In this document: piece by piece, positions 28,398 to 44,556 of the stretch
How the letters are laid out: every line of letters starts with the position of its first letter
Position numbering within the stretch: position 1 is the stretch's first letter
Source: an uncultured Bacilli bacterium
GTDB taxonomy: Bacteria > Bacillota_I > Bacilli_A > RF39 > UBA660
Length of the DNA: 44,556 nucleotides
NCBI GenBank assembly: GCA_947624705.1
Contig: CANQLL010000003.1
Location: 1-44,556 of the forward strand
Direction of reading: 5' to 3'
The notes under the pieces: model-generated
Told to the model about the DNA's origin: nothing
The model's database searches: none
The model's input: only the letters and a program-made list of their open reading frames with translations
Made by a program: the position numbers and the translations under genes

Positions 28398-28835
28398 ATG
28401 TTATTTGAAAACAATAATTTTGATGATAACTTTGGGTTAGACTTATCTTTTTTTAATCTAGATTTAGATAGTAAAAAAAATCCTAAATTATATGATGTAA
28501 AAGAAGGATTTTTAAAAGGAAATATGTTTAAAAATGAATTTGAGCCTTATAAGAATTATCCAGTAGCAACAATTGTTCCAAAAAATAAAAAAGAAGAATT
28601 AGAATTAAAAATATATGAATTAGATTTTGCTATTAATGATTTAAATTTATACTTAGATTTACATCCAGAAGATATGGAAATGTTTAATTTATTTAAAAAA
28701 TATATTAAAGATGCTAATCGTTATAAAGAAGAATATTTAAATGAAATAGGACCAATTTGTCTTACAGATGTTACTTCTAAAACTTATGATTGGCCCAATA
28801 CTTGGCCTTGGGAAAATAAAGGAGGTAATATCTAA
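28398..28835 (+). CDS. cotJB: CotJA-CotJB fusion spore coat protein
   Basis: CotJA-like LYD.KEGF.KGNMF.NEFEPY followed by CotJB DFAINDLNLYLDLHP...GP....WPWE. Confidence 0.82.
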   Translation: MLFENNNFDDNFGLDLSFFNLDLDSKKNPKLYDVKEGFLKGNMFKNEFEPYKNYPVATIVPKNKKEELELKIYELDFAINDLNLYLDLHPEDMEMFNLFKKYIKDANRYKEEYLNEIGPICLTDVTSKTYDWPNTWPWENKGGNI

Positions 28836-29392
28836 TGTTTAAATATGAAAAAAAATTAAATTATCCGGTTAATTTAAAGAAAAAAGATTTAAAAATGGCT
28901 AAATATTTAATTACTCAATTTGGCGGTTCTAATGGGGAATTAGCGGCGGCGTTACGTTATTTTTCGCAAAAATTTACGATGCCTGATGCCAAAGGTAAAG
29001 CTTTACTTAATGATATAGCTACCGAAGAATTTGGTCATTGTGAAATGATTTGTACCATGATTTATCAATTAACTAAAGGTGCAACGGTGGAAGAATTAAT
29101 GAATGCCGGAATTGGCACAAAATATGTAGAACATGGTAAAGCTTTATACCCTACTGATTCGGAAGGAGTTCCATTTACAGCGAGCTACTTTAATGCTGTA
29201 GGTGACCCTCTTGCTGATTTAGCTGAAGATATGGCCGCTGAACAAAAAGCCCGGGCAACTTATGAACATTTAATTGATATTGCCACTGACCAAGATATTA
29301 TTGCCGTTTTACTTTTCTTACGCCAAAGAGAAGTTGTTCACTATAATCGTTTTAAAGAATTATTTGATATGTATCAAAAGCAAGGTTACTAG
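28835..29392 (+). CDS. cotJC: CotJC, manganese catalase family spore coat protein
   Basis: MF.YEKKL.YPV, QFGGSNGEL.A.LRY, DIATEE.GH.E, EDMAAEQKARATYE, REVVH; TAATG coupling to cotJB. Confidence 0.93.
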   Translation: MFKYEKKLNYPVNLKKKDLKMAKYLITQFGGSNGELAAALRYFSQKFTMPDAKGKALLNDIATEEFGHCEMICTMIYQLTKGATVEELMNAGIGTKYVEHGKALYPTDSEGVPFTASYFNAVGDPLADLAEDMAAEQKARATYEHLIDIATDQDIIAVLLFLRQREVVHYNRFKELFDMYQKQGY

Positions 29393-29459: not shown

Positions 29460-32063
29460 TTATACTCCATATTTAACTTTTTTCTTTTTTAAAATTAATT
29501 TTCTTAAAAAATCAACAGGAATAACTGTAAAAGCTAATAAGATTACAATTAAAAATTCAAAACCAGTTAAACCATAAGTTCTAAACATATTTCCCCCATA
29601 ATAAATTAAATATATTTGTACTAATACTATGAAAAGAAAAGTTAATAAAAAGACTTTATTTTTAGTAATATTAGCTAAAATATTTAAACGTTCAGTTCTC
29701 GCATTAAAAGCATTAAAAATACTAACAAAAATAAATAAAGCAAAGTAAGCAGTCATTAAATATTTATAGTTAGTACCACTACGAATTAGCATTTTAAAAA
29801 TTGGTAATTTTAAAAATAAAATACATAAAATGGCGGAATATAAACCTGTAAATAAAATTTCACTATACATATACTTATTAATAATCGCTTCATCCTTTTG
29901 TTTAGGTGCTTCTTGCATATAATCGCGCAGTGGAGCTTCGAAAGAAAAAGCTAGTCCGGCTAAAGTATCCATAATCATATTAATCCATAACATTTGCATA
30001 ATCGTAATGGGAGTGTTAATACCGATAAAAGGCCCAATAATCGACATCGCTACCGCACAAATATTAACCGTTAATTGAAAGATAATAAATTTGCGAATGC
30101 TTTTGAAGATTGTCCGGCCAAATAAAATAGCTTTGCTAATTGATAAAATATTATCATCAACAATCACTATATCTGCGGCACTTTTGGCCACTTCCGTACC
30201 ACTTCCCATCGCAAAGCCCACATCACATTTTTTTAAAGCTGGGGCATCATTGACACCATCTCCTGTCATCCCGACAACTAAATTTTGACTTTGAGCAATT
30301 TTTACTAAACGACTTTTATCACTTGGTAAAGCCCGAGCTATTATTTTAATGGAAGGTAAGATACTAGCTATTTCCTCATCACTTAAACTACCTAAATCTT
30401 TACTTGTTAAAACTAAATCTTTAGAATTATTTATTAAATTAATTTCTTTCCCAATAGCCATGGCTGTTTCTTTAGAATCCCCGGTAATCATAATAGTTTG
30501 AATTCCCGCTTCTGTTACTAACTTTAATCCTTCTTTAGCTTCATCTCTTATTTCATCTTTAATGAAAACTAAACCAACTAGAGTTAAATTATCAAAATAA
30601 TTTAACTCTTTTAAATCTTCATTAATAGCCATTACTAAAACTCTAATTCCCCTATTTGTGGCATTATCTATTTCTTTTAAAATATCTTTTTTATTTAGTA
30701 AAACTTTTCTTTTACCCTCTTTATTATAATAATATTTACAAAAAGGTAAAATCTTTTCCTGCGCTCCTTTAATTAGAGAGAGTCTTTTACCTAAATCAAT
30801 GGTAGTGATAGCATATTTGTTACTACTATTAAAAGGTATTTTATTTATTATTTTAATATTTTGATATTTTTTTTGACAAAATTCCAGTAAAGCTCGATCT
30901 GTTATATTTCCGCCAATAATTTTACCATTTTCATCTATTTGACTAGCATTATTAACAGACATGGATAAATCAACTAAATATTCTAACTTTTTATCTATTT
31001 GTTGATGTTGAGTGTATCTTATTAAATCCCCAGTTATAAAATTAGTTACTTCTAATTTACCTTTGGTAATAGTTCCAGTTTTATCACTTAAAAGTAAATT
31101 AATACTACCCGCTGTTTCAATTCCGACTAACTTTCGAACTAAAACATTTTCTTTTAACATTCTTTTCATATTAGCTGATAAAACTAAAGTTATCATCATG
31201 GGTAACCCTTCGGGTACGGCTACTACAATGATTGTGACACTTAAAGTTAAAGCATAAAGAATATAAGAAAATAATTCTCGAAAGTTAGTTAAAGTAGCCA
31301 TAATTTCATTAACATTAAAATGATTATTTATAACAATCGTGGAAAATAAATAAGAAAAAGAAACCAAGAAAGCTCCAATATAACCTATTCGACTGATTAT
31401 TTTAGCTAAATGTCTTAATTTTAATTTTAAAGGACTATCAGGTTGTTTTTCTTGAATTTCTAAAGCTAATGAACCATAAATAGTTTTATCCCCTACTTCA
31501 CAGACTAACATTTTAGCTTCTTTATTAACTACGACACTACCTCTTAAAACTTTACTATCTTTTAAAGAAGATTTTTCTTTTTCTTTGGCTTCACCATTTA
31601 AAATAGATTCATCTACTTCTATTTCCCCTTCAATAATAATTCCATCCGCCGGAACTTTATCTCCTGAGGCTAATAAGACAATATCTTCTTTAACTACTTC
31701 ATCAATACTAATTTCTTTAATTTTACCGTCTCTTAAAACTCTTGATTTAGTTTTTTCCGCTTCATCTTGTAAACGTTTAAAAGCTTGCTCACTTCCATAT
31801 TCACTAATACTAGAAATAAATGAAGCTAAGAATATAGCAATAACTATGCCTAAAGTTTCAAACCAATCAAAATCTTGAAATAGAAAAACAACTTTAACAG
31901 CTAAAGCTATTAATAAAATTTTAATAATAGGATCTCCTAAAGATTCCAAAAGTAATCTAAAAAAGCCATCTTGTTTCTTATCTGTTATTTTATTAGTGCC
32001 ATATTTTTTTCTAGATATTATTACTTCTTCTTCGCTTAAACCTTTGCTATATTTATTTTTCAT
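29460..32063 (-). CDS. Calcium-translocating P-type ATPase (type II)
   Basis: VPEGLP, DKTGT, KGAQE, TGDS, GDGVNDAPAL, QMLWINMIMDT; start moved to the ATG at 32063 after GGAGG. Confidence 0.93.
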   Translation of the reverse strand: MKNKYSKGLSEEEVIISRKKYGTNKITDKKQDGFFRLLLESLGDPIIKILLIALAVKVVFLFQDFDWFETLGIVIAIFLASFISSISEYGSEQAFKRLQDEAEKTKSRVLRDGKIKEISIDEVVKEDIVLLASGDKVPADGIIIEGEIEVDESILNGEAKEKEKSSLKDSKVLRGSVVVNKEAKMLVCEVGDKTIYGSLALEIQEKQPDSPLKLKLRHLAKIISRIGYIGAFLVSFSYLFSTIVINNHFNVNEIMATLTNFRELFSYILYALTLSVTIIVVAVPEGLPMMITLVLSANMKRMLKENVLVRKLVGIETAGSINLLLSDKTGTITKGKLEVTNFITGDLIRYTQHQQIDKKLEYLVDLSMSVNNASQIDENGKIIGGNITDRALLEFCQKKYQNIKIINKIPFNSSNKYAITTIDLGKRLSLIKGAQEKILPFCKYYYNKEGKRKVLLNKKDILKEIDNATNRGIRVLVMAINEDLKELNYFDNLTLVGLVFIKDEIRDEAKEGLKLVTEAGIQTIMITGDSKETAMAIGKEINLINNSKDLVLTSKDLGSLSDEEIASILPSIKIIARALPSDKSRLVKIAQSQNLVVGMTGDGVNDAPALKKCDVGFAMGSGTEVAKSAADIVIVDDNILSISKAILFGRTIFKSIRKFIIFQLTVNICAVAMSIIGPFIGINTPITIMQMLWINMIMDTLAGLAFSFEAPLRDYMQEAPKQKDEAIINKYMYSEILFTGLYSAILCILFLKLPIFKMLIRSGTNYKYLMTAYFALFIFVSIFNAFNARTERLNILANITKNKVFLLTFLFIVLVQIYLIYYGGNMFRTYGLTGFEFLIVILLAFTVIPVDFLRKLILKKKKVKYGV

Positions 32064-36601: not shown

Positions 36602-37713
36602 TTTTGATTTCCTTCCTCATTTATTTGATTTAAAGTTTTAACACTAATTTTATACTTAGTTAAACGACTAGCTAATTTAACATTACTTCCCCCTTTACCA
36701 ATGGCTAAAGAGAAGTTACTATCATCTAAAATTGCTAAAGCTTCTTTTTTAACGGGATCAGTTATATTAACAATAGCATTTTTAGCTGGTGATAAAGCAT
36801 TTTGAATAAAGGTTACTGGATCTTCATCATATAAAACTAAATCTACTTTTTCGCCATTTAATTCTTTTAAAATACTACCAATTCTTGAACCATGTTCCCC
36901 AATACACGCGCCGATAGCATCAACTTTTTCATTGGTTGAATAAACAGCAACTTTACTTCTTAGTCCAGCTTCGCGCGCAACGGCATATAGCATTAAAGTT
37001 CCATCTTCAAATTCGGGAATTTCTCTTTCAAATAATCTTTTAACAAAACCATAATGTTTACGTGAAAGTAATATTAATGGTCCTTTGGTTCCGGCTTCGA
37101 CTTTGGTGACATAAACTTTAACTGAAGAACCCATTTTTACTTCTTCGCCTGGAATCATTTCACTTTTTGGTAAAATACCTCTCGTTCGGCCTAATTCTAC
37201 ATAATAATTTTTAGCATCTTCCATGGCTAGTGTTCCAACTAATAACTCATTTTGTTTATCTGCAAACTCAGCCATGATACTATTTCTTTCTGCTTCTCTT
37301 ATCTTTTGCGTAACTACTTGTTTGGCCGTACTAGCAGCCACCCGACCGAAATCAGCGGGAGTTACTTCTTTTTCAATAGTTTCCCCAACTTTAATATCAG
37401 GTACTATTTCTTTAGCATCTTCAAGTAATATTTGGGCATCAGGATTTATTTCTGGTTCGGTATAAGTAACATTACCTTCTTCATCCACTACTTCTTCTCC
37501 ATCAATATAATCTTCGACTACAACTAAATAAGAATAAACTTTAATATCTCCTGTTTCACGATTAATATCTACTCTAACGTTAGTTTTAGAATCAAAATTC
37601 TTTTTATAAGCTGTAGCTAAAGCTTGTTCCATCGCTTCAAAAACAATATCTTCTGATATACCTTTTTCTTCCACAATATTCTTTACAGCTTTAATAAATT
37701 CTTCACTATTCAT
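36598..37713 (-). CDS. nusA: Transcription factor NusA
   Basis: FGRVAASTAKQV, S1 domain, AREAG.RSKVAV, GACIG..G.R, AIGKGG.NVKLA; start at 37713. Confidence 0.97.
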   Translation of the reverse strand: MNSEEFIKAVKNIVEEKGISEDIVFEAMEQALATAYKKNFDSKTNVRVDINRETGDIKVYSYLVVVEDYIDGEEVVDEEGNVTYTEPEINPDAQILLEDAKEIVPDIKVGETIEKEVTPADFGRVAASTAKQVVTQKIREAERNSIMAEFADKQNELLVGTLAMEDAKNYYVELGRTRGILPKSEMIPGEEVKMGSSVKVYVTKVEAGTKGPLILLSRKHYGFVKRLFEREIPEFEDGTLMLYAVAREAGLRSKVAVYSTNEKVDAIGACIGEHGSRIGSILKELNGEKVDLVLYDEDPVTFIQNALSPAKNAIVNITDPVKKEALAILDDSNFSLAIGKGGSNVKLASRLTKYKISVKTLNQINEEGNQN

Positions 37714-37972
37714 TATAATCATCTCCTTTAACTTTACTTACAACATCTAGAATATAATATTCATCTATTAAATCATGTTTATCCACAATTGGATTAATTA
37801 CTTCTGTGGCTTTAACAATTGTATCTAAATCTATACCCCCAATTTTATCTAATTCAATTGTTAAAAACTTATACTTTTTTTCTTCCCGAATATTAATATC
37901 GGAAACTATAATTTCCATTTCTTTTAAAGCTTGATTAACATCACTTTCTAATTTTTTTAATTTTTGATCCAT
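37706..37972 (-). CDS. rimP: Ribosome maturation factor RimP, N-terminal domain only
   Basis: L.I.LDK.GGIDLD.....T..I..IVD..D.I...Y.LDV.S; first gene of the nusA operon; only 88 aa. Confidence 0.75.
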   Translation of the reverse strand: MDQKLKKLESDVNQALKEMEIIVSDINIREEKKYKFLTIELDKIGGIDLDTIVKATEVINPIVDKHDLIDEYYILDVVSKVKGDDYNE

Positions 37973-38074: not shown

Positions 38075-38344
38075 TTATTTAGTTCTTCTTGTAACTAATA
38101 ATTGATCTGGCATTAAATAAATTGTATCATTTTCACGCATGACTCTTTCTTTATCAATTCCAAATCGATTGGCCACAACATCTAAAGTATCTCCTTCAGT
38201 TGTTATATAATAACTATAGCCGCTTTTGGGAATTAAAATTTGTTGATTAGGATAGATATAATCATTCATTGTTAAACCATTTAAAGTTGCTAGTAATTCG
38301 GGATTAATATTATATTTTCTGGCAATAGCATATAAATTATCCCC
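38075..38344 (-). pseudogene. 3' part of a LysM gene interrupted by the recombinase element
   Basis: Frame open from 38344: GDNLYAIARKYNINPELLATLNGLTMNDYIYPNQQILIP...YITTEGDTLDVVANRFG...; lacks the first strand of LysM2, which lies at 42042 and above. Confidence 0.9.
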
Positions 38345-38355
38345 TGATACTCTTT

Positions 38356-39909
38356 TTATGTCGTATTTTTAAATGTAAATATAATATCTATCCTTTTATC
38401 TTGATAGATATAAATTTTTTCTACTAAATTTATGATTAATTCTCTTGATAGATTTTCAATTGATAAAAATTTATCAATGTATTTTTCTATTTTTTTATTA
38501 TCTATTTTATTTGATTCTTGATTTTTTAATTTAGCAATATTTTTTTGATTATCTTCTATTTCTTTTTTGATATTTTTCCTTATTCTTAAATATTGTGATT
38601 CATCAATAAAACCTTTTAATCTATCCATATAAGTTTTATCTAAATTTTCAGTTAGTTTATTATTTGTAAGTTCTAAACTTTCAATTTGTTTTTTTATTTT
38701 TAAATTGTTGTCTGCAAATTTTATATTTCCTATAGAATCTTTTATTTTCTTTTTATCAAGGTACTTCTTACAAACATCTTTAATATTATCTAAAATAACA
38801 CGCTCTAATGTTTCATAATTATTTGTATGAGTAGTACAAACATGATACTTTGAGTAAGTTCTATAATAATTGCAAGTAGTATAACTTCTACCTGTTTTAT
38901 TTTGATATCTTATCGTTATTCGATGTTTACAATCTCCACAATATAAAAGGCCATCTAATAAATAAAATCTTTTTTTCTCTGGTCTTTTTACATTTTTAGG
39001 AAGAAGAGTTTGAACATAATTAAAAGTATCTCTATCTATTATAGCTTCATGAGTATTTTTTACAATGATATAGTCTTTAGGATTATTTTTAACTGTCTTT
39101 TTTAATTTATAATTAATCTTTTTAGTTTTTCCTTGTACTGAATCTCCCACGTAGATTTGATTAGTTAAAATTGCTTTTATTGTTGTATCAACCCATACAC
39201 CAAGTTCTTTTGAAATACATTTACTACTCTTTGTATTCCATACATAATTGTAGTAAGATGCTGGTGTTTTAATTTTTCTTTTGGTTAATTCTTGGGCTAT
39301 GTAATGATAAGTATTGCCTTTTAACGCTAAATCGAAGATTAATCTAACGGTCTTTGCTTGTTCTTCATTTATTATTAGATGATTTTTATTATTTGGATCT
39401 TTCATATAGCCAAAAGGACATCTACCTGATACATATAAACCATCTTTCATTCTTGAATGTAAACTAGACTTTACTTTTTTAGAAATATCTTTGGCATACA
39501 TATCATTCATTATGGCCTTAAAAGGTGCTATATCATTATTGGTATTATCTATGAATGTATCTATTCCATCATTGATAGCAATATATCTTATATTATTGTT
39601 GGGAAAATATTTTTCTATTAACTCGCCGGTGCCGATATAATCACGACCCAATCTTGACATATCTTTAGTAATAATCATATTTATTTTATTATTTTCTATA
39701 TCTTTAATCATTTTCTTAAAAGCTGGTCTTTCAAAATTAGTGCCAGTAAATCCATCATCCACATATTCATCAATAACATTATAATTATTTTCTTTAACAT
39801 ATTGATTAAGTAAACTTCTTTGACTAACAATACTATCAGATTCAATATTTCCATCATCTCTTGATAATCTTATATAAAGTCCGACTTTAAAACTATTATT
39901 GCCGATCAT
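38356..39909 (-). CDS. Large serine recombinase (resolvase, recombinase and Zn-ribbon domains)
   Basis: YIRLS catalytic Ser, Y.DDG.TGT.F.RP, KDMSRLGR, PFGY, IL.NQ.Y.G, HEAII, LLYCGDC...C...C. Confidence 0.96.
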   Translation of the reverse strand: MIGNNSFKVGLYIRLSRDDGNIESDSIVSQRSLLNQYVKENNYNVIDEYVDDGFTGTNFERPAFKKMIKDIENNKINMIITKDMSRLGRDYIGTGELIEKYFPNNNIRYIAINDGIDTFIDNTNNDIAPFKAIMNDMYAKDISKKVKSSLHSRMKDGLYVSGRCPFGYMKDPNNKNHLIINEEQAKTVRLIFDLALKGNTYHYIAQELTKRKIKTPASYYNYVWNTKSSKCISKELGVWVDTTIKAILTNQIYVGDSVQGKTKKINYKLKKTVKNNPKDYIIVKNTHEAIIDRDTFNYVQTLLPKNVKRPEKKRFYLLDGLLYCGDCKHRITIRYQNKTGRSYTTCNYYRTYSKYHVCTTHTNNYETLERVILDNIKDVCKKYLDKKKIKDSIGNIKFADNNLKIKKQIESLELTNNKLTENLDKTYMDRLKGFIDESQYLRIRKNIKKEIEDNQKNIAKLKNQESNKIDNKKIEKYIDKFLSIENLSRELIINLVEKIYIYQDKRIDIIFTFKNTT

Positions 39910-40025
39910 TAACTTATACTCCTACTGAGTAAATTTTCTAATTCTATTTTTAAAACATTAGTTATTATTTCATTTAAAGTTTTTCCATTTTCTTTAAATT
40001 TTAAATTAATTTTATATTTAACCAT
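39909..40025 (-). CDS. Small 38-aa protein coupled to the recombinase (candidate RDF), not in the ORF track
   Basis: MVKYKINLKFKENGKTLNEIITNVLKIELENLLSRSIS*; GGAGGT RBS; its TAA overlaps the recombinase ATG (TAATG). Confidence 0.68.
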   Translation of the reverse strand: MVKYKINLKFKENGKTLNEIITNVLKIELENLLSRSIS

Positions 40026-40058
40026 AGAATTTTATACCTCCAATAAAATTCTATGGTT
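40020..40058. promoter_or_regulatory. Perfect 16-bp inverted repeat with the Shine-Dalgarno in its loop
   Basis: AACCATAGAATTTTAT-acctcca-ATAAAATTCTATGGTT; on minus the loop is TGGAGGT and the ATG lies in the stem. Confidence 0.8.
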
Positions 40059-40098
40059 CTTAAATTAATAATATTGTAAATTACTGACAAAAATCAAT

Positions 40099-41955
40099 TT
40101 ATCTAATAATTTTGCCAATTTCTTCTATTCCACTTTGCATAGTATTCATTTTCTTTTGTTGCTCCTCAAGATTACTTATTATAACATTAATTTTTTTTAT
40201 ATCATTTGGATTAGTTGCTAATTTTTTTAACGTATATCCATCATTTATAAGCTTATTATTTATAACAATTAGCGTTGCAAGTTCTTTATCATCAATATAT
40301 CCGTCAGACATCATTATATGGTATGCTTCTTGAGCTTTATCTAATTTGTTTCTTAATTGTCCTATTAATCTAGAAAAATCTTTATCATTATTAATTTGAT
40401 TAATTTCTTTTTTTATTTCAGTTTGTTTTTGAGTTTTTATTTCAGAATGAAGTTTTTTATATTTTTCTTGGATCTCTGTTAAGATAATATTTTGTAATCT
40501 AATTTGCATTTCATTATGACTAAGTTCATAAATAGAACGAGTCATTATTTGCTCCAATTCATCTTCATTATTTAATGATTCGATTAGATAAGTTTCATTA
40601 TAAAATATTTCACCTATTAGCTGTTTCTTTTGTTCTTCAGACATTTGATTATTAGGATAGTATCTTTGTACTACTTTTATCATTTCATTAAAATAATAAT
40701 TAAAATCTTTCTTCTTTTTATCTTCTTGATTCATTTGAGAATATTTTTTAATATTGGCATTTTGATTGATATCAATTACTTGTTTTTCTCTTTCAATTAC
40801 CATGTTTTTTATATTAGAAATTATTTTATCTTGTTCAGTAATTAAATTAGGATTTTTAGTCATCTGATTATTAAATTCGGATATATAATTTTTAATCCTA
40901 GTAATATCAGTTTGTGTAAGATTAGGATTTTTTAAATCATGTGCAACTTTTTTTTGTAAACAGATAGTTAAAAATAAATCTAGCTTTTGAGATTCTTCTA
41001 ATGAAGATTCATTCTTTATTTTATTTAATGAATTAAGGATATTAAACATAGGCGGTTTACCTTGATATATTTTATCAGAAACCATTTTAAATTGATCAAA
41101 AAATTCATAGGCTACGATTGAATTTTCATACATTGCTTTAAAAGCTAAATTTTCGCCCATTACAATCTTCATCATTTTTCCATATGAAGTTATCTTATAA
41201 TTACTAGACTGATAATTATAAATATTCTTTTTAAAACCATTACCCATATTGTATAAGAATTGGGATTTATTAACACCAGTCACCCTAAGTGCCTCATCCT
41301 CATTAAAAATTTCATCAAGATATATCGCGTATGCATTTTTTGCATAGAAATCTCTTGCATCTTTACTTTTGTCATCTTTACGAATCACTTTCATACCTGC
41401 TTGTCTTATAGTTAACATTTCATTAGTAGATTGAAGTTTAAAATAATTGGGATACTTTGTATTTAGATTATTGATTAATTGTCTATATTTATTATCATCA
41501 TTTCCATACATCCCTTTAAATGATGTTTGCAAAGCATGACCTAATTCATGATTAAATACATTTAAAGATGCTTTTCTTAATGTCTCGTTATCCACATTAT
41601 GAATTCTATTTTGTAATTTATCCAAGGTTATATCTTCGATAAATTTATAATTCCCTATATATAGTGATTGGTCTTTTGAAGTATAAGCACCTTTAAGAGT
41701 ATTATCTTTATTATATGTTTGATCAAAATCATAATTTCTAATATTATTAACTAATCTATTAATGAAAAAATCTCCAATATCAGAACTATTTACAACTATT
41801 TTAGTCTCATTATTATTAAAATCAGGATTAACATTTTGATAGATTTTTACTCTTCTAATAATATTTTGCCTTATTAAATTAGCTTGCTCAGTACTTAAAT
41901 TATAAACTGACACTATTTCGTTAATTACAATATTAAGTTTTTTTTCAAAATTCAT
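40099..41955 (-). CDS. Element cargo: hypothetical protein with HExxH zinc-metallopeptidase-like motif
   Basis: VFNHELGHALQ plus a downstream LDEIFNEDEA helix; coiled-coil C-terminus; probable ATG at 41955 after AGGTGG. Confidence 0.7.
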   Translation of the reverse strand: MNFEKKLNIVINEIVSVYNLSTEQANLIRQNIIRRVKIYQNVNPDFNNNETKIVVNSSDIGDFFINRLVNNIRNYDFDQTYNKDNTLKGAYTSKDQSLYIGNYKFIEDITLDKLQNRIHNVDNETLRKASLNVFNHELGHALQTSFKGMYGNDDNKYRQLINNLNTKYPNYFKLQSTNEMLTIRQAGMKVIRKDDKSKDARDFYAKNAYAIYLDEIFNEDEALRVTGVNKSQFLYNMGNGFKKNIYNYQSSNYKITSYGKMMKIVMGENLAFKAMYENSIVAYEFFDQFKMVSDKIYQGKPPMFNILNSLNKIKNESSLEESQKLDLFLTICLQKKVAHDLKNPNLTQTDITRIKNYISEFNNQMTKNPNLITEQDKIISNIKNMVIEREKQVIDINQNANIKKYSQMNQEDKKKKDFNYYFNEMIKVVQRYYPNNQMSEEQKKQLIGEIFYNETYLIESLNNEDELEQIMTRSIYELSHNEMQIRLQNIILTEIQEKYKKLHSEIKTQKQTEIKKEINQINNDKDFSRLIGQLRNKLDKAQEAYHIMMSDGYIDDKELATLIVINNKLINDGYTLKKLATNPNDIKKINVIISNLEEQQKKMNTMQSGIEEIGKIIR

Positions 41956-42041
41956 TTGACTCACCACCTATAGTTATAATAACATTTTTCATAATTTTTA
42001 TTTTTTAAATATTCATTATTTCCCATAAAAACTGTATCCCC

Positions 42042-42227
42042 CTTTTCAATTGTATAATATTCAAAATATTGTTCTTTATTTTTGGGAACAACTATTTCCA
42101 TTCCCGCTCTTAAATAATTAACATTTTCTAAATTATTTAATTCTTTTAATACTTCAATTGAAGTATTAAATTTTTGGGCTATTACTTTTAAATCTTCGCC
42201 ACTTTTTAAAAGATATTTATCATACAT
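42042..42227 (-). CDS. 5' part of the LysM gene (62 codons; reads on into the element to 41961 when it is integrated)
   Basis: Y.LKSGEDL..IAQKFN.SIE.L.ELNNL.....L.AG.EI.VP (LysM1) then YTIEKGD (start of LysM2); AGGAGTG RBS. Confidence 0.9.
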
Positions 42228-42246
42228 ACTTAATCACTCCTAATAG

Positions 42247-42273
42247 TAAGATATGATAAACTCCTAATTTTGT
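42247..42273 (-). promoter_or_regulatory. Sporulation-sigma (SigK-like) promoter of the LysM gene
   Basis: Minus AC-N16-CATATCTTA upstream of the RBS; no clear SigA boxes. Confidence 0.5.
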
Positions 42274-43379
42274 TATTTAAAAACAAAAATCATTTTTTCA
42301 AAATTAAAATTCCATTCAAAATTTTCTAGTAATAATATTTCTCCTTCTTTAGGAGAATAACTATATAATTTATTTTCCTCTAAATAATAAACAGTATCAT
42401 CTTGTGTATCAATAATTTTTGCATTTTCTTTCTTACTTACTAACCTTTTATTTTCACTATTATATAATTTTAAATATAAATTTTTTTTACTTAAATAATA
42501 ATTATAATCTAATGTTTGAATAAATTTTCTTTCTTTATTTACTAATTCATTTAAAGTTATTTCTTTAAAACCATTTTCATAAATAATTCCTTTATTTTTC
42601 TTATTTCCTACTATTCTCAATTTTTTATGAGATGGTACTATTTCATACTCAATCTTATTTTTCTTATCAACTAAATAAACACTATCTTTATAAGTCCCTA
42701 AAACATAACTATCCATAGAAATATCGTAATCAATATTCCAAATTTCTTTTTTACCATTATCAAAATTAATAATAATAAATTGATTAAAATTATATTCTTC
42801 TTGATAATTAGCTAAAATTAATAAATTATGAATTTTAGCTATTACTTTAAGATTATATACATCTTTATCAGTTATTTTTATATTATCAGTTATATCTTTA
42901 TTTAAATAATAAAAACCTTTGTAATTCCATAATAAATATTTATTAGAGTTTAAATTATGAATTGTAATATTATTAAAATTAATTTTATTATCAATATTAT
43001 TTTCTTTTATTTTATAATGTTTAAGTATTTCTTCATCATTAATTAATCTAATATCTTTTAAAGTATTATTTTCATAACAAACCGGTTTAAGTACTTCTTT
43101 TTTTAAAGAAATACTTAAACATTTATTTTTTTCATTTGTAAAATAATCTAAATTTTCTACTAATTTACGTCCTTTGGTAGATGAAATAAATTCATAATCT
43201 TTGTTATCAATATTTATTTTAAAATAATGAATTTTTAAATCTTTATTATATTCTTCATAAATTTTGTAATTGTTAATTTTATATTCAATTTTATAATTGT
43301 GAGGAAGATGAAAGAGGATAATAATTACAATAATGGTAATTATTATCATATAAAATCTTTTTTTAACTTTCTTCTTCAT
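42273..43379 (-). CDS. Hypothetical membrane-anchored protein
   Basis: N-terminal basic stretch plus TM; beta-rich 368-aa body. Confidence 0.78.
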   Translation of the reverse strand: MKKKVKKRFYMIIITIIVIIILFHLPHNYKIEYKINNYKIYEEYNKDLKIHYFKINIDNKDYEFISSTKGRKLVENLDYFTNEKNKCLSISLKKEVLKPVCYENNTLKDIRLINDEEILKHYKIKENNIDNKINFNNITIHNLNSNKYLLWNYKGFYYLNKDITDNIKITDKDVYNLKVIAKIHNLLILANYQEEYNFNQFIIINFDNGKKEIWNIDYDISMDSYVLGTYKDSVYLVDKKNKIEYEIVPSHKKLRIVGNKKNKGIIYENGFKEITLNELVNKERKFIQTLDYNYYLSKKNLYLKLYNSENKRLVSKKENAKIIDTQDDTVYYLEENKLYSYSPKEGEILLLENFEWNFNFEKMIFVFK

Positions 43380-43966: not shown

Positions 43967-44556
43967 TTGAGTAAAAGAAAAAATGAAAATAACTTTATTC
44001 CCTTAACCTTTGACGGTATCTTTAAAGCTTTATTTAGACATAAAAGATATTTAATTGATTTTCTTAAAGATGTTTTAAAGTATGATATTGTTGATTTAGA
44101 ATATCTTGATTCTTATTTAGAAAAAGCTAATATTTCCACTAAAGAATCTTTCTTAGATGTCTTAGTTAAATTTAATGATGGCACTCATGCCATCATTGAA
44201 ATGCAAAACCAAGATCGTGGGAGTATGGTTACGAGAATTTTTTACTACCTTGGTAAACTAGCTACTAAAAGTTTAAAAACGGGTGAAGATTATAAATTAA
44301 TTAAAAAATATATTGGTATTTGTGTTTTAGATTATAATGACCCACGCTTTACAAATCTTCACAATGTTTGTAAACTATATAATGTAGATACCAAAGAAAT
44401 TCTAACTGATGAATTAGAAATTCATATTATTAATTTAAAAAGTAAAATTATGAATGATAAATTAAAATGGTTAGAAGTATTTAAAGAAGAGGATGATTGG
44501 GATATGGGTAAATATACTGATGAAGAATTAAAAGCTGCTGTTAATGAGTTAAAAAG
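43967..44556 (+). CDS. Rpn family PD-(D/E)XK nuclease/putative transposase (3' end outside window)
   Basis: TTG start after GGAGGTG: ...PLTFDGIFKALF...FLDVLVKFNDGTHAIIEMQ...RIFYY...GEDYKLIKKYIGICVLDY; open to the window end and absent from the ORF track. Confidence 0.87.
   Translation, partial: MSKRKNENNFIPLTFDGIFKALFRHKRYLIDFLKDVLKYDIVDLEYLDSYLEKANISTKESFLDVLVKFNDGTHAIIEMQNQDRGSMVTRIFYYLGKLATKSLKTGEDYKLIKKYIGICVLDYNDPRFTNLHNVCKLYNVDTKEILTDELEIHIINLKSKIMNDKLKWLEVFKEEDDWDMGKYTDEELKAAVNELK

Follow-up and report, generated by a model that had tools for sequence, protein, structure and literature searches.

Results

A LysM gene split by a recombinase element

The window analysed in this work is the whole contig CANQLL010000003.1 (44,556 nt), which belongs to a 1.28-Mb, 89-contig, 88%-complete assembly of 26% G+C from an uncultured Bacilli bacterium. 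It contains a gene for a protein with three LysM domains, and this gene is divided by an insert of 3,697 bp that carries a large serine recombinase (LSR) gene. An earlier note on this DNA had compared the insert with skin, the LSR element in sigK of Bacillus subtilis; it described a LysM gene split by a 3.7-kb serine-recombinase cassette, free of stops or frameshifts in both halves and preceded by a SigK-like promoter, and our analysis bears out all three of these points. The parts of the split gene, including the core copies at the two junctions (attL and attR), are as follows.

42247-42275, minus strand: sigma-K-type promoter of the LysM gene, assigned by conservation, with -35 TAACAA at 42270-42275 and -10 CATATCTTA at 42247-42255
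42235-42241, minus strand: ribosome-binding site of the LysM gene, AGGAGTG
42042-42227, minus strand: 5' part of the split LysM gene, which starts with the ATG at 42227, spans LysM1 and ends at ...YYTIEK, one third into LysM2
42035-42041: core copy at attL, TATCCCC on the plus strand and GGGGATA in the gene sense, holding the glycine codon with the putative crossover GG
38338-38344: core copy at attR
38075-38337, minus strand: 3' part of the split LysM gene, with the remainder of LysM2 from ...NLYAIARKY, LysM3 and the stop

The two copies of the 7-bp core TATCCCC (plus strand) are spaced by 3,697 bp, and a third copy at 31487 is unrelated. Deletion of one core copy and the DNA between the two, 3,697 bp in all, fuses 42227..42035 of the minus strand to 38337..38075 and produces an open reading frame (ORF) of 456 nt (151 codons and a stop), which encodes three LysM domains and is open throughout, with zero internal stops or frameshifts. 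Taken separately, the 5' piece matches one LysM domain (Pfam E 2.4e-10) and the 3' piece two LysM stretches (Pfam E 3.2e-14), the first of which is devoid of the initial 8 profile positions, as expected, because the domain is cut in two. In the integrated state the 5' gene fragment runs 24 extra codons into the element and then stops. The restored protein has no signal peptide.

The search for intact orthologues in related genomes, which the earlier note had proposed, gave a uniform answer: the LysM gene is unbroken in 9 of 9 same-genus genomes searched, with open frames of 154-172 aa, and the residues run continuously over the predicted joint (...YYTIEKG-DNLY...). The unoccupied bacterial attachment site (attB) equals the predicted joint in all nine. 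An assembly chimera was considered as the origin of the split and rejected: the region occurs only once in its own assembly, and the same architecture recurs in independent assemblies.

Each of the 12 orthologous upstream regions in the alignment keeps the promoter pattern, AAC followed by a spacer and CATAnnnTA, whereas the intergenic bases next to it vary. The letter consensus for sigma-K promoters was taken as general background. The sigma factors E and K have a common -10 element, and it is position 4 of the -35 element that discriminates between them, with C for sigma-K and T for sigma-E, according to Eichenberger et al. (PMC517825). Given this sigma-K-type promoter, the three-LysM gene is probably a late mother-cell gene of the spore envelope.

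Anatomy of the insert

The features of the insert, listed from its left to its right end, are given below.

42024-42038, minus strand: left-end arm GATACAGTTTTTATG (family consensus GATACAATTTTTATG)
40099-41967, minus strand: cargo ORF, 622 aa from GTG 41967 and probably 618 aa from ATG 41955 (MNFEKK...)
40020-40058, minus strand: hairpin or palindrome found by folding, 16-bp stem, with the ribosome-binding site of the small ORF (GGAGG) in the loop and its ATG in the 3' arm
39909-40025, minus strand: small ORF, 38 aa, conserved in relatives, whose stop overlaps the LSR start
38356-39909, minus strand: LSR, 517 aa, assigned by Pfam, with the stop codon inside the right-end arm
38346-38360, minus strand: right-end arm CATAAAAAGAGTATC (family consensus CATAAAAANNGTATC)

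The G+C content of the insert (23.2%) is lower than that of the window (25.9%) and of the genome (26.0%), and its three ORFs (622 aa, 38 aa and the 517-aa LSR) run in the direction of the LysM gene. The LSR is full-length, 91% identical to its nearest relatives, and contains the Pfam domains Resolvase (PF00239, 1.9e-21), Recombinase (PF07508, 1.1e-22) and Zn_ribbon_recom (PF13408, 9.7e-10); DUF4368 was detected at E 0.0025 only, which is under the cut-off. Its nearest solved relative by sequence match is the catalytic domain of TnpX (PDB 2mhc, E 2.2e-27), and among solved structures it stands nearer to TnpX than to any phage integrase. The sole PHROG match among the insert ORFs is that of the LSR to phrog_95 (integrase), and the phage and plasmid collections yielded zero LSRs at 60% identity or above. 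Thus the element is non-phage, as the earlier note had it, and the possibility of a prophage or a prophage relic was rejected.

The element ends form an imperfect inverted repeat with 15-nt arms (13/15 complementary). They resemble the attachment site of a circular element (attP): the centre is A-GG-A, the common core is 7 bp long and a target duplication is absent.

The small ORF was matched by tblastn in 20 of 20 loci and called as an ORF in 42 of the 52 elements analysed, i.e. 51 family loci with two ends (described below) and the window copy. An alignment of 25 of its sequences has nine invariant columns, and its product is a candidate directionality or regulatory factor. The hairpin around its start (-22.7 kcal/mol, z = -4.0) was equalled in stability by 0 of 200 shuffles and is kept in the alignment of the 52 elements. 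Just before the LSR ribosome-binding site, most relatives also carry the left-end motif once more, in inverted form and over 14 nt (GGGAATAATGAGTA versus TACTCATTATTCCC); this copy sits in the C-terminal coding part of the small ORF, is lost in the window near 39909-39930, and could be involved in RNA pairing or be a protein site.

The large cargo ORF had no match in Pfam, PADLOC or PHROG, and none of its 204 homologues bears an informative name. It includes an HExxH-like stretch that is variable among aligned relatives, and its family is present in 4 of the 52 elements. An Rfam scan of the element returned a sub-threshold chance match only, and sigma-70-like sites were at background (52 vs 43.4 +/- 6.7). 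The scan for intrinsic terminators from the host promoter to the LSR found none.

A family of cassettes with one target rule

The family loci are the best 80 (75-94% LSR identity) of 511 relatives found among 600 candidate stretches of a species-genome collection; this set overlaps partly with 20 loci taken from a genus survey. That survey covered 200 other genera of the host family at one genome per genus and met LSRs at least 78% identical in 22 of them; one genome has two copies. Individual loci, genomes and contigs are referred to below by L, G and C numbers, and the own genome of the window copy is G000. Both ends could be placed in 51 loci, which gives element sizes of 2,324-7,900 bp with a median of 4,312 bp.

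The family left end reads GATACAATTTTTATG and then GGGAATAATGAGTA; the right end reads CATAAAAA-NN-GTATC and then N-GG. Right after the right end, an in-frame G-D-[TSN]-[LI] follows in 72 of the 80 loci, and L136 has the LysM motif there likewise, after a 1-nt arm difference. In front of the left end, [YH]-x-[VIT]-x-x-G stands in 55 of the 80 loci; most of the 25 loci with no left end have less than 4.5 kb of contig upstream, and most of them stop at a contig end. With identical end sequences and one insertion point in 72 of 80 loci, the pattern is more than chance. The rule for the family is thus that insertion always separates the Gly codon of the LysM motif from its Asp codon, the LSR pointing the same way as its target. 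The palindrome of L054 is perfect and centred on A-GG-A, so that the crossover is most likely at the GG of the invariant glycine codon. The attB and attP consensus sequences (51 sites) have little in common beyond GG-N-GATAC.

Joints of the attP type were found in natural contigs. In L054/L106 (8511-10125) a complete element is followed by an attP-type joint, a second truncated element and then the LysM 3' half; a second joint lies on a 1,380-bp metagenome contig (L058), which was the single match of that scan. A tandem or nested arrangement is also seen in L040 (5085-6230). The LSR is 85-91% identical across genera, versus ~40-70% for the host three-LysM protein. The empty sites, the high cross-genus LSR identity, the shuffled cargo and the natural attP joints are signs of mobility, and we hold it to be very probable that the insert is one member of a widespread, horizontally mobile family of LSR cassettes which uses LysM-coding DNA as attB.

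A few loci with near-identical LSRs (L091, L096, L106, L128) are on contigs labelled Eubacterium sp. CAG:180, Muribaculaceae, Vescimonas and Oscillospiraceae; either there was transfer beyond the host family or these are binning or labelling errors.

Orthologues of the three-LysM gene of the window are occupied in L061, L063, L068 and L111 at LysM2 and in L109 and L115 at LysM3. Among the other targets there are proteins with Amidase_3 and LysM repeats and no signal peptide, proteins with PG_binding_1-like regions and LysM, and LysM-only proteins. Any LysM repeat within a gene can be a landing site. A sigma-K-type motif is located at most 120 nt upstream of 11 of the 52 targets, compared with 22 of 1,069 background ORFs, and it precedes 10 of the 12 targets that begin with a full-length amidase domain. 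A signal-peptide-less Amidase_3 enzyme behind a sigma-K-type promoter resembles CwlC, the mother-cell lysis hydrolase described in PMC517825 as the last to be switched on.

The 52 elements encode 320 ORFs of at least 35 aa, which fall into 99 clusters, 60 of them singletons. The LSR is found in all 52. The cargo is shuffled and variable, and it consists largely of defence genes. The recognised cargo is listed here with the number of elements that carry it.

DpnII-type restriction-modification set, D12 methylase: 12 elements
DpnII-type restriction-modification set, N6_N4 methylase: 9 elements
DpnII-type restriction-modification set, DpnII endonuclease: 9 elements
RhuM: 7 elements
UPF0158 and SWIM pair: 5 elements
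ASCH: 4 elements
OLD-like ATPase/TOPRIM (OLD-like nuclease): 3 elements
GNAT: 3 elements
AIPR: 2 elements
HNH: 2 elements
MMPL with a divergently transcribed 186-aa ORF (TetR-like by eye only): 2 elements
Class-II aminoacyl-tRNA-synthetase-like gene: 2 elements

The earlier note had suggested that the insert may be a minimal, skin-like element which leaves the LysM gene exactly in frame. The family does not support a minimal switch dedicated to this gene. The insert is one copy among relatives with LSRs 75-94% identical, spread over many genera and LysM genes with shuffled cargo. Restoration of the reading frame is not evidence of domestication, because attB is rebuilt whenever an LSR excises its element conservatively. 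One could still argue for a domesticated, minimal skin-like switch dedicated to the LysM gene, kept vertically and excised only in the mother cell, as the target has a sigma-K-type promoter, the element is without phage genes and orthologues of the same gene are repeatedly occupied in the six loci named above. However, the site is empty in all 9 other genomes of the genus, and in one of them (G007) a related element is found in a different gene; moreover, near-identical LSRs are in many other genes and genera with different cargo, which fits a mobile and not a fixed element. Such a switch is thus already contradicted by the distribution of the elements, and we consider it most improbable.

Other LSR elements in sporulation genes of the lineage

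Paralogous LSR elements, 36-41% identical, split further mother-cell genes in the host lineage. In G000 itself, a spoVE-like SEDS gene (C5:423-12710; L016, L143) is divided at ...PVTG|V... by an element of ~11 kb into a 5' part of 339 aa and a 3' piece at C5:423-584, with a 538-aa LSR (588-2201) at the right end of the element. The best NCBIfam model for this gene is spoVE (412.9 bits vs 375 for ftsW), and the FtsW-like and RodA-like paralogues of the genome are unbroken. By eye, the cargo of this element includes two tRNA-synthetase-like ORFs (KMSKS motif), a NUDIX-like ORF and an aldo-keto-reductase-like ORF. The spoVE split pattern, as a pattern only, was seen in 2 further genomes (G005 and G021) of 46 searched. 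Fragments matching spoVE profile positions 299/318-354 are present in two genomes with intact spoVE, at G007:C1:488614-488775 (~1.4 kb downstream of the intact gene and stop-ridden) and at G008:C15:1222-1332 (on a separate contig); they may be remnants of past insertions or element-borne mimics of the gene end.

A second target in G000 seems to be represented by an Amidase_3 fragment (profile positions 6-80) at C6:49-2361 (L017), which extends from ...SHGG to ...NAGGGDG. A 535-aa LSR with DUF4368 lies on its upstream side and a TnpV gene on its downstream side, as if two further elements had each cut the amidase gene at a conserved motif. This is also where the contig ends.

The congener G007, which is assembled as a single contig, provides two more cases. 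Its cotE gene (C1:690102-693653; L140, 6094-9672) is split by an element of ~3 kb with a 550-aa LSR, and the gene pieces match CotE profile positions 2-42 and 38-174; the two cargo ORFs of this element resemble ASCH and GNAT by eye. Among 61 genomes searched, 42 others possess cotE, each as an unsplit gene. The second case is a CwlC-like amidase-LysM gene (C1:~404000-422600; L139, L048) in three intact, in-register pieces: an element of ~11.9 kb with a 556-aa LSR is inserted at ...NAGGG|..., with a common GGTGGCGA core at this first junction pair, and a 3.9-kb member of the LysM family, which shares a cargo family with the window copy, is inserted in LysM1.

The host and the genes near the element

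Related records, all of animal or human gut origin, bear the labels uncultured Bacilli, Tenericutes or Erysipelotrichaceae. Sequencing runs that contain the window are from a rabbit gut metagenome: four runs from one sample of one study hold 85-95% of its words (probably the source sample), and a further 2 runs from a second study hold a small share. There is no RNA run among the runs listed.

Spo0A (Spo0A_C), SpoIVA and CotE are present in the own genome, and CotE in 34 of 36 genomes of the host family. The several coat genes that the earlier note placed near the element were confirmed in part: cotJB and a cotJC-like gene lie at 28398-29392 and the window also has a SpoVD-like penicillin-binding protein, but the other 28 window ORFs scanned are housekeeping genes or unassigned. 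At the level of genes, and at that level only, the host is judged to be an endospore former.

Directly upstream of the LysM gene there is a 368-aa ORF (42273-43379, minus strand) with no Pfam, NCBIfam or PHROG match, and its position beside the LysM gene is kept in most of 11 relatives in the alignment of upstream regions. On the other side, a rimP-like ORF (37706-37972, minus strand) is only 88 aa long and comprises the N-terminal domain only. An ORF of the PD-(D/E)XK transposase family (43967-44554, plus strand) runs off the contig end.

Discussion

Insertion and excision

Four things are observed: how the element is built, that its site is empty in relatives, that one target rule holds throughout the family, and that relatives have attP joints in natural contigs. 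The following mechanism is proposed on this basis. The LSR would recombine a ~34-bp palindromic attP (CATAAAAA-NN-GTATC-N-GG-N-GATAC-NN-TTTTTATG) with an attB consisting of the DNA which codes for the LysM motif Y-x-V-x-x-G|D-T/S-L-W/Y-x-I-A. The circular cassette would integrate at the GG and thereby divide the gene between its Gly and Asp codons; the reaction being conservative, excision by the LSR would rebuild the gene exactly. We infer that the LSR is active and that the small upstream ORF modulates direction or expression. The LSR could excise the element alone, as PMC5704250 reports for TnpX, or together with the product of the small ORF.

Is excision tied to sporulation?

The timing of excision could be set by two routes. 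The first would be read-through from the promoter of the host gene: since the cassette genes are co-directional with it and no terminator was found, transcription from the late host promoter could reach the LSR. The hairpin would silence the small ORF on such long read-through transcripts. The second route would use a sigma-E-like site before the small ORF. Excision that is timed to the mother cell during sporulation, so that the element is skin-like in function and yet not domesticated, is to our mind a prospect only just short of even, and the sporulation link as such is plausible but unproven.

Several observations weigh against the explanation as a whole. A direct sign of excision was not seen for this copy: in its own assembly, neither the attB nor the attP built from the window was found, and scans with the attP pattern gave 0 matches in viral contigs and, with up to 2 mismatches allowed, 0 in the own genome. 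None of the 52 elements has a strict sigma-K motif before the small ORF. In 15 of them the small ORF is preceded by a loose sigma-E-like arrangement (AT, 16-17 nt, CATAnnnT), compared with 24 of 820 background ORFs, these being related, non-independent elements; it can be seen by eye in the window copy too, and its -10-like bases belong to the hairpin. Two of the 52 targets (L089 and L091) have signal-peptide-like starts, hence the choice of target tracks sequence and not function. For the split gene, dN/dS is 0.09-0.16 in the 3' half as against 0.04-0.09 among intact orthologues, with dS of ~1, at which the ratio is uninformative. Finally, the window copy is devoid of the ~60 nt upstream of the LSR which encode the C-terminal part of the small ORF in most relatives, and it may be impaired by the loss of this segment and of the C-terminal half of the small ORF.

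The last point, taken further, would mean that the window copy is an immobile remnant which can no longer excise, with a permanently broken LysM gene. In support of this, its small ORF is truncated to a short form of 38 aa when most relatives have 55-69 aa, a segment upstream of the LSR kept by relatives is deleted, the left end deviates from the family consensus outside the arm, and decayed or nested relatives are known (L040, L054/L106, L074, L118, L134). On the contrary, the LSR ORF is full-length and close to its nearest relatives, both 15-nt arms and the core are intact, so are both gene halves, and other short small ORFs occur in otherwise complete elements (35 aa in L115 and 50 aa in L104). 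We therefore regard a dead copy as unlikely.

A more serious competitor is an ordinary integrative element without any developmental control. The LysM motif would then be no more than a conserved, multi-copy landing pad, the split gene would be knocked out and its loss tolerated, be it that late spore-envelope or LysM-repeat genes are dispensable to a gut dweller or that selection for sporulation is relaxed in the strain at hand, and excision would serve transfer only. The choice of target by sequence over unrelated LysM genes, including the two with signal-peptide-like starts, speaks for it, as do the patchy distribution with high cross-genus identity, the cargo composed mostly of defence genes and the lack of a conserved sigma-K motif on the element. 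The closest solved relative of the LSR, TnpX, is the recombinase of Tn4451, which integrates and excises without a recombination directionality factor (RDF) according to PMC5704250. Besides, three or more sporulation-type genes are interrupted in one genome, which could reflect relaxed selection. However, the pieces of every split gene examined in detail are open and in register (the LysM gene, spoVE of G000, cotE of G007 and the three-piece amidase gene of G007), and spo0A, spoIVA and cotE are all found in the own genome despite the split spoVE. In Bacillus subtilis, spoVE is required for cortex synthesis. Also, those LSR elements inside mother-cell genes that have been studied excise during sporulation (PMC5595907, PMC4191935). 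An element free of developmental control is in our opinion a substantial possibility, though one to which we give somewhat less than even weight.

Excision timed to the mother cell can be extended to the other families described above. In this wider proposal, several paralogous LSR families would each use a motif of a mother-cell gene as attB, namely the LysM G-D codons, spoVE at ...PVTG|VTLPF..., a site in cotE and two Amidase_3 motifs. They would ride the spore germline free of cost and be cut out in the terminal mother cell. The timer of the LysM family would be read-through from the host sigma-K promoter, with the hairpin shielding the small ORF, and one gene may hold two or three cassettes, all of which must leave. 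We offer this extended version with reserve, as possible but rather doubtful. A bacterial parallel for genes with several cassettes is known from the multiply interrupted nif genes of heterocysts.

Relation to known elements

Both LSR integrative elements and gene-intervening elements in sporulation genes are already known. LSR elements in sigK, spsM, spoVFB, spoVR and gerE are described as excised in the mother cell (PMC5595907; PMC4191935). The likeness to skin drawn by the earlier note stands insofar as a non-phage LSR cassette occupies a LysM gene of a bacterium with sporulation genes; a non-phage intervening element is not without precedent, since gin in gerE of Bacillus cereus ATCC10987 is one (PMC5595907). 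The element gin lies within the coding region of a late mother-cell gene, as the window element probably does, and, as PMC5595907 presents it, combines an LSR with a small extra factor (GirC and GirX), to which the LSR and the candidate factor from the small ORF would correspond here; in both elements the junctions share a short core and the attachment site is an inverted repeat, and a recent horizontal spread was suggested for gin as well. In contrast, gin is 28.6 kb long with three recombinase genes and, as far as that account goes, one known target gene, whereas the window element has 3.7 kb and one LSR and belongs to a family that targets a domain motif in many genes. Sporulation-specific excision was demonstrated for gin (PMC5595907), while the window element is known from its sequence.

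In skin (sigK) and SPbeta (spsM) of Bacillus subtilis and in skinCd of Clostridioides difficile, conservative excision by an LSR rebuilds a mother-cell gene and the element is kept in the spore germline (PMC4191935, PMC5595907). For SPbeta and skinCd the same papers report a constitutive recombinase and an RDF under sporulation control. These three are prophages or their relics, each tied to one gene in those descriptions, unlike the window family, which has no phage genes and has variable, defence-rich cargo. The size of the window family is clearly different too, and this can be seen from its median given above. Prophage elements of the skin and SPbeta type measure tens of kb.

Tn4451 and Tn4453 with TnpX are small LSR elements as well, and their recombinase excises and integrates at a 2-bp identical sequence (PMC5704250). 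According to that source, Tn4451 is of low specificity in its choice of target (GA, at numerous sites) and carries a MobV relaxase along with a resistance gene. The window family, on the other hand, is highly specific for the LysM motif with its GG (one position in 72 of 80 loci) and has the conserved small ORF upstream of the LSR; no relaxase was recognised by Pfam or PHROG in the two other ORFs of the window copy, nor was one found among the cargo families scanned. Serine-recombinase integrative and mobilizable elements at internal sites of conserved genes, such as those in traG of Tn5252-related integrative and conjugative elements (PMC5704250), similarly use a conserved coding sequence as attB. 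As described there, these use one gene of another mobile element, whereas the motif that serves the window family belongs to a repeat domain, is found in several host genes and recurs within each of them.

Our literature search retrieved no paper that links LSR elements with LysM genes, no LSR paper with spoVE and no mention of cotE or cwlC among rearranged genes; supplementary tables of gene-rearrangement papers may list more interrupted genes. What appears new is the use of a domain motif as attB, the host group, the small size combined with variable, defence-rich cargo, and the stacking of LSR cassettes in spoVE, cotE, CwlC-like and LysM genes.

If confirmed, these findings would describe LSRs that recognise as attB not one locus but the coding sequence of a protein domain, at the Gly-Asp codons of the LysM motif, and they would extend gene-intervening elements to uncultured, small-genome gut Bacilli. 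The targets would be new (a three-LysM gene, a CwlC-like amidase gene, spoVE and cotE) and the elements much smaller (2.3-8 kb), with defence genes on board. For the engineering of LSRs, the family would supply closely related integrases whose attB is defined, short and degenerate. Dozens of independent insertions could be compared, with several in one genome and at times several in one gene, and the question why mobile elements occupy mother-cell genes would become testable.

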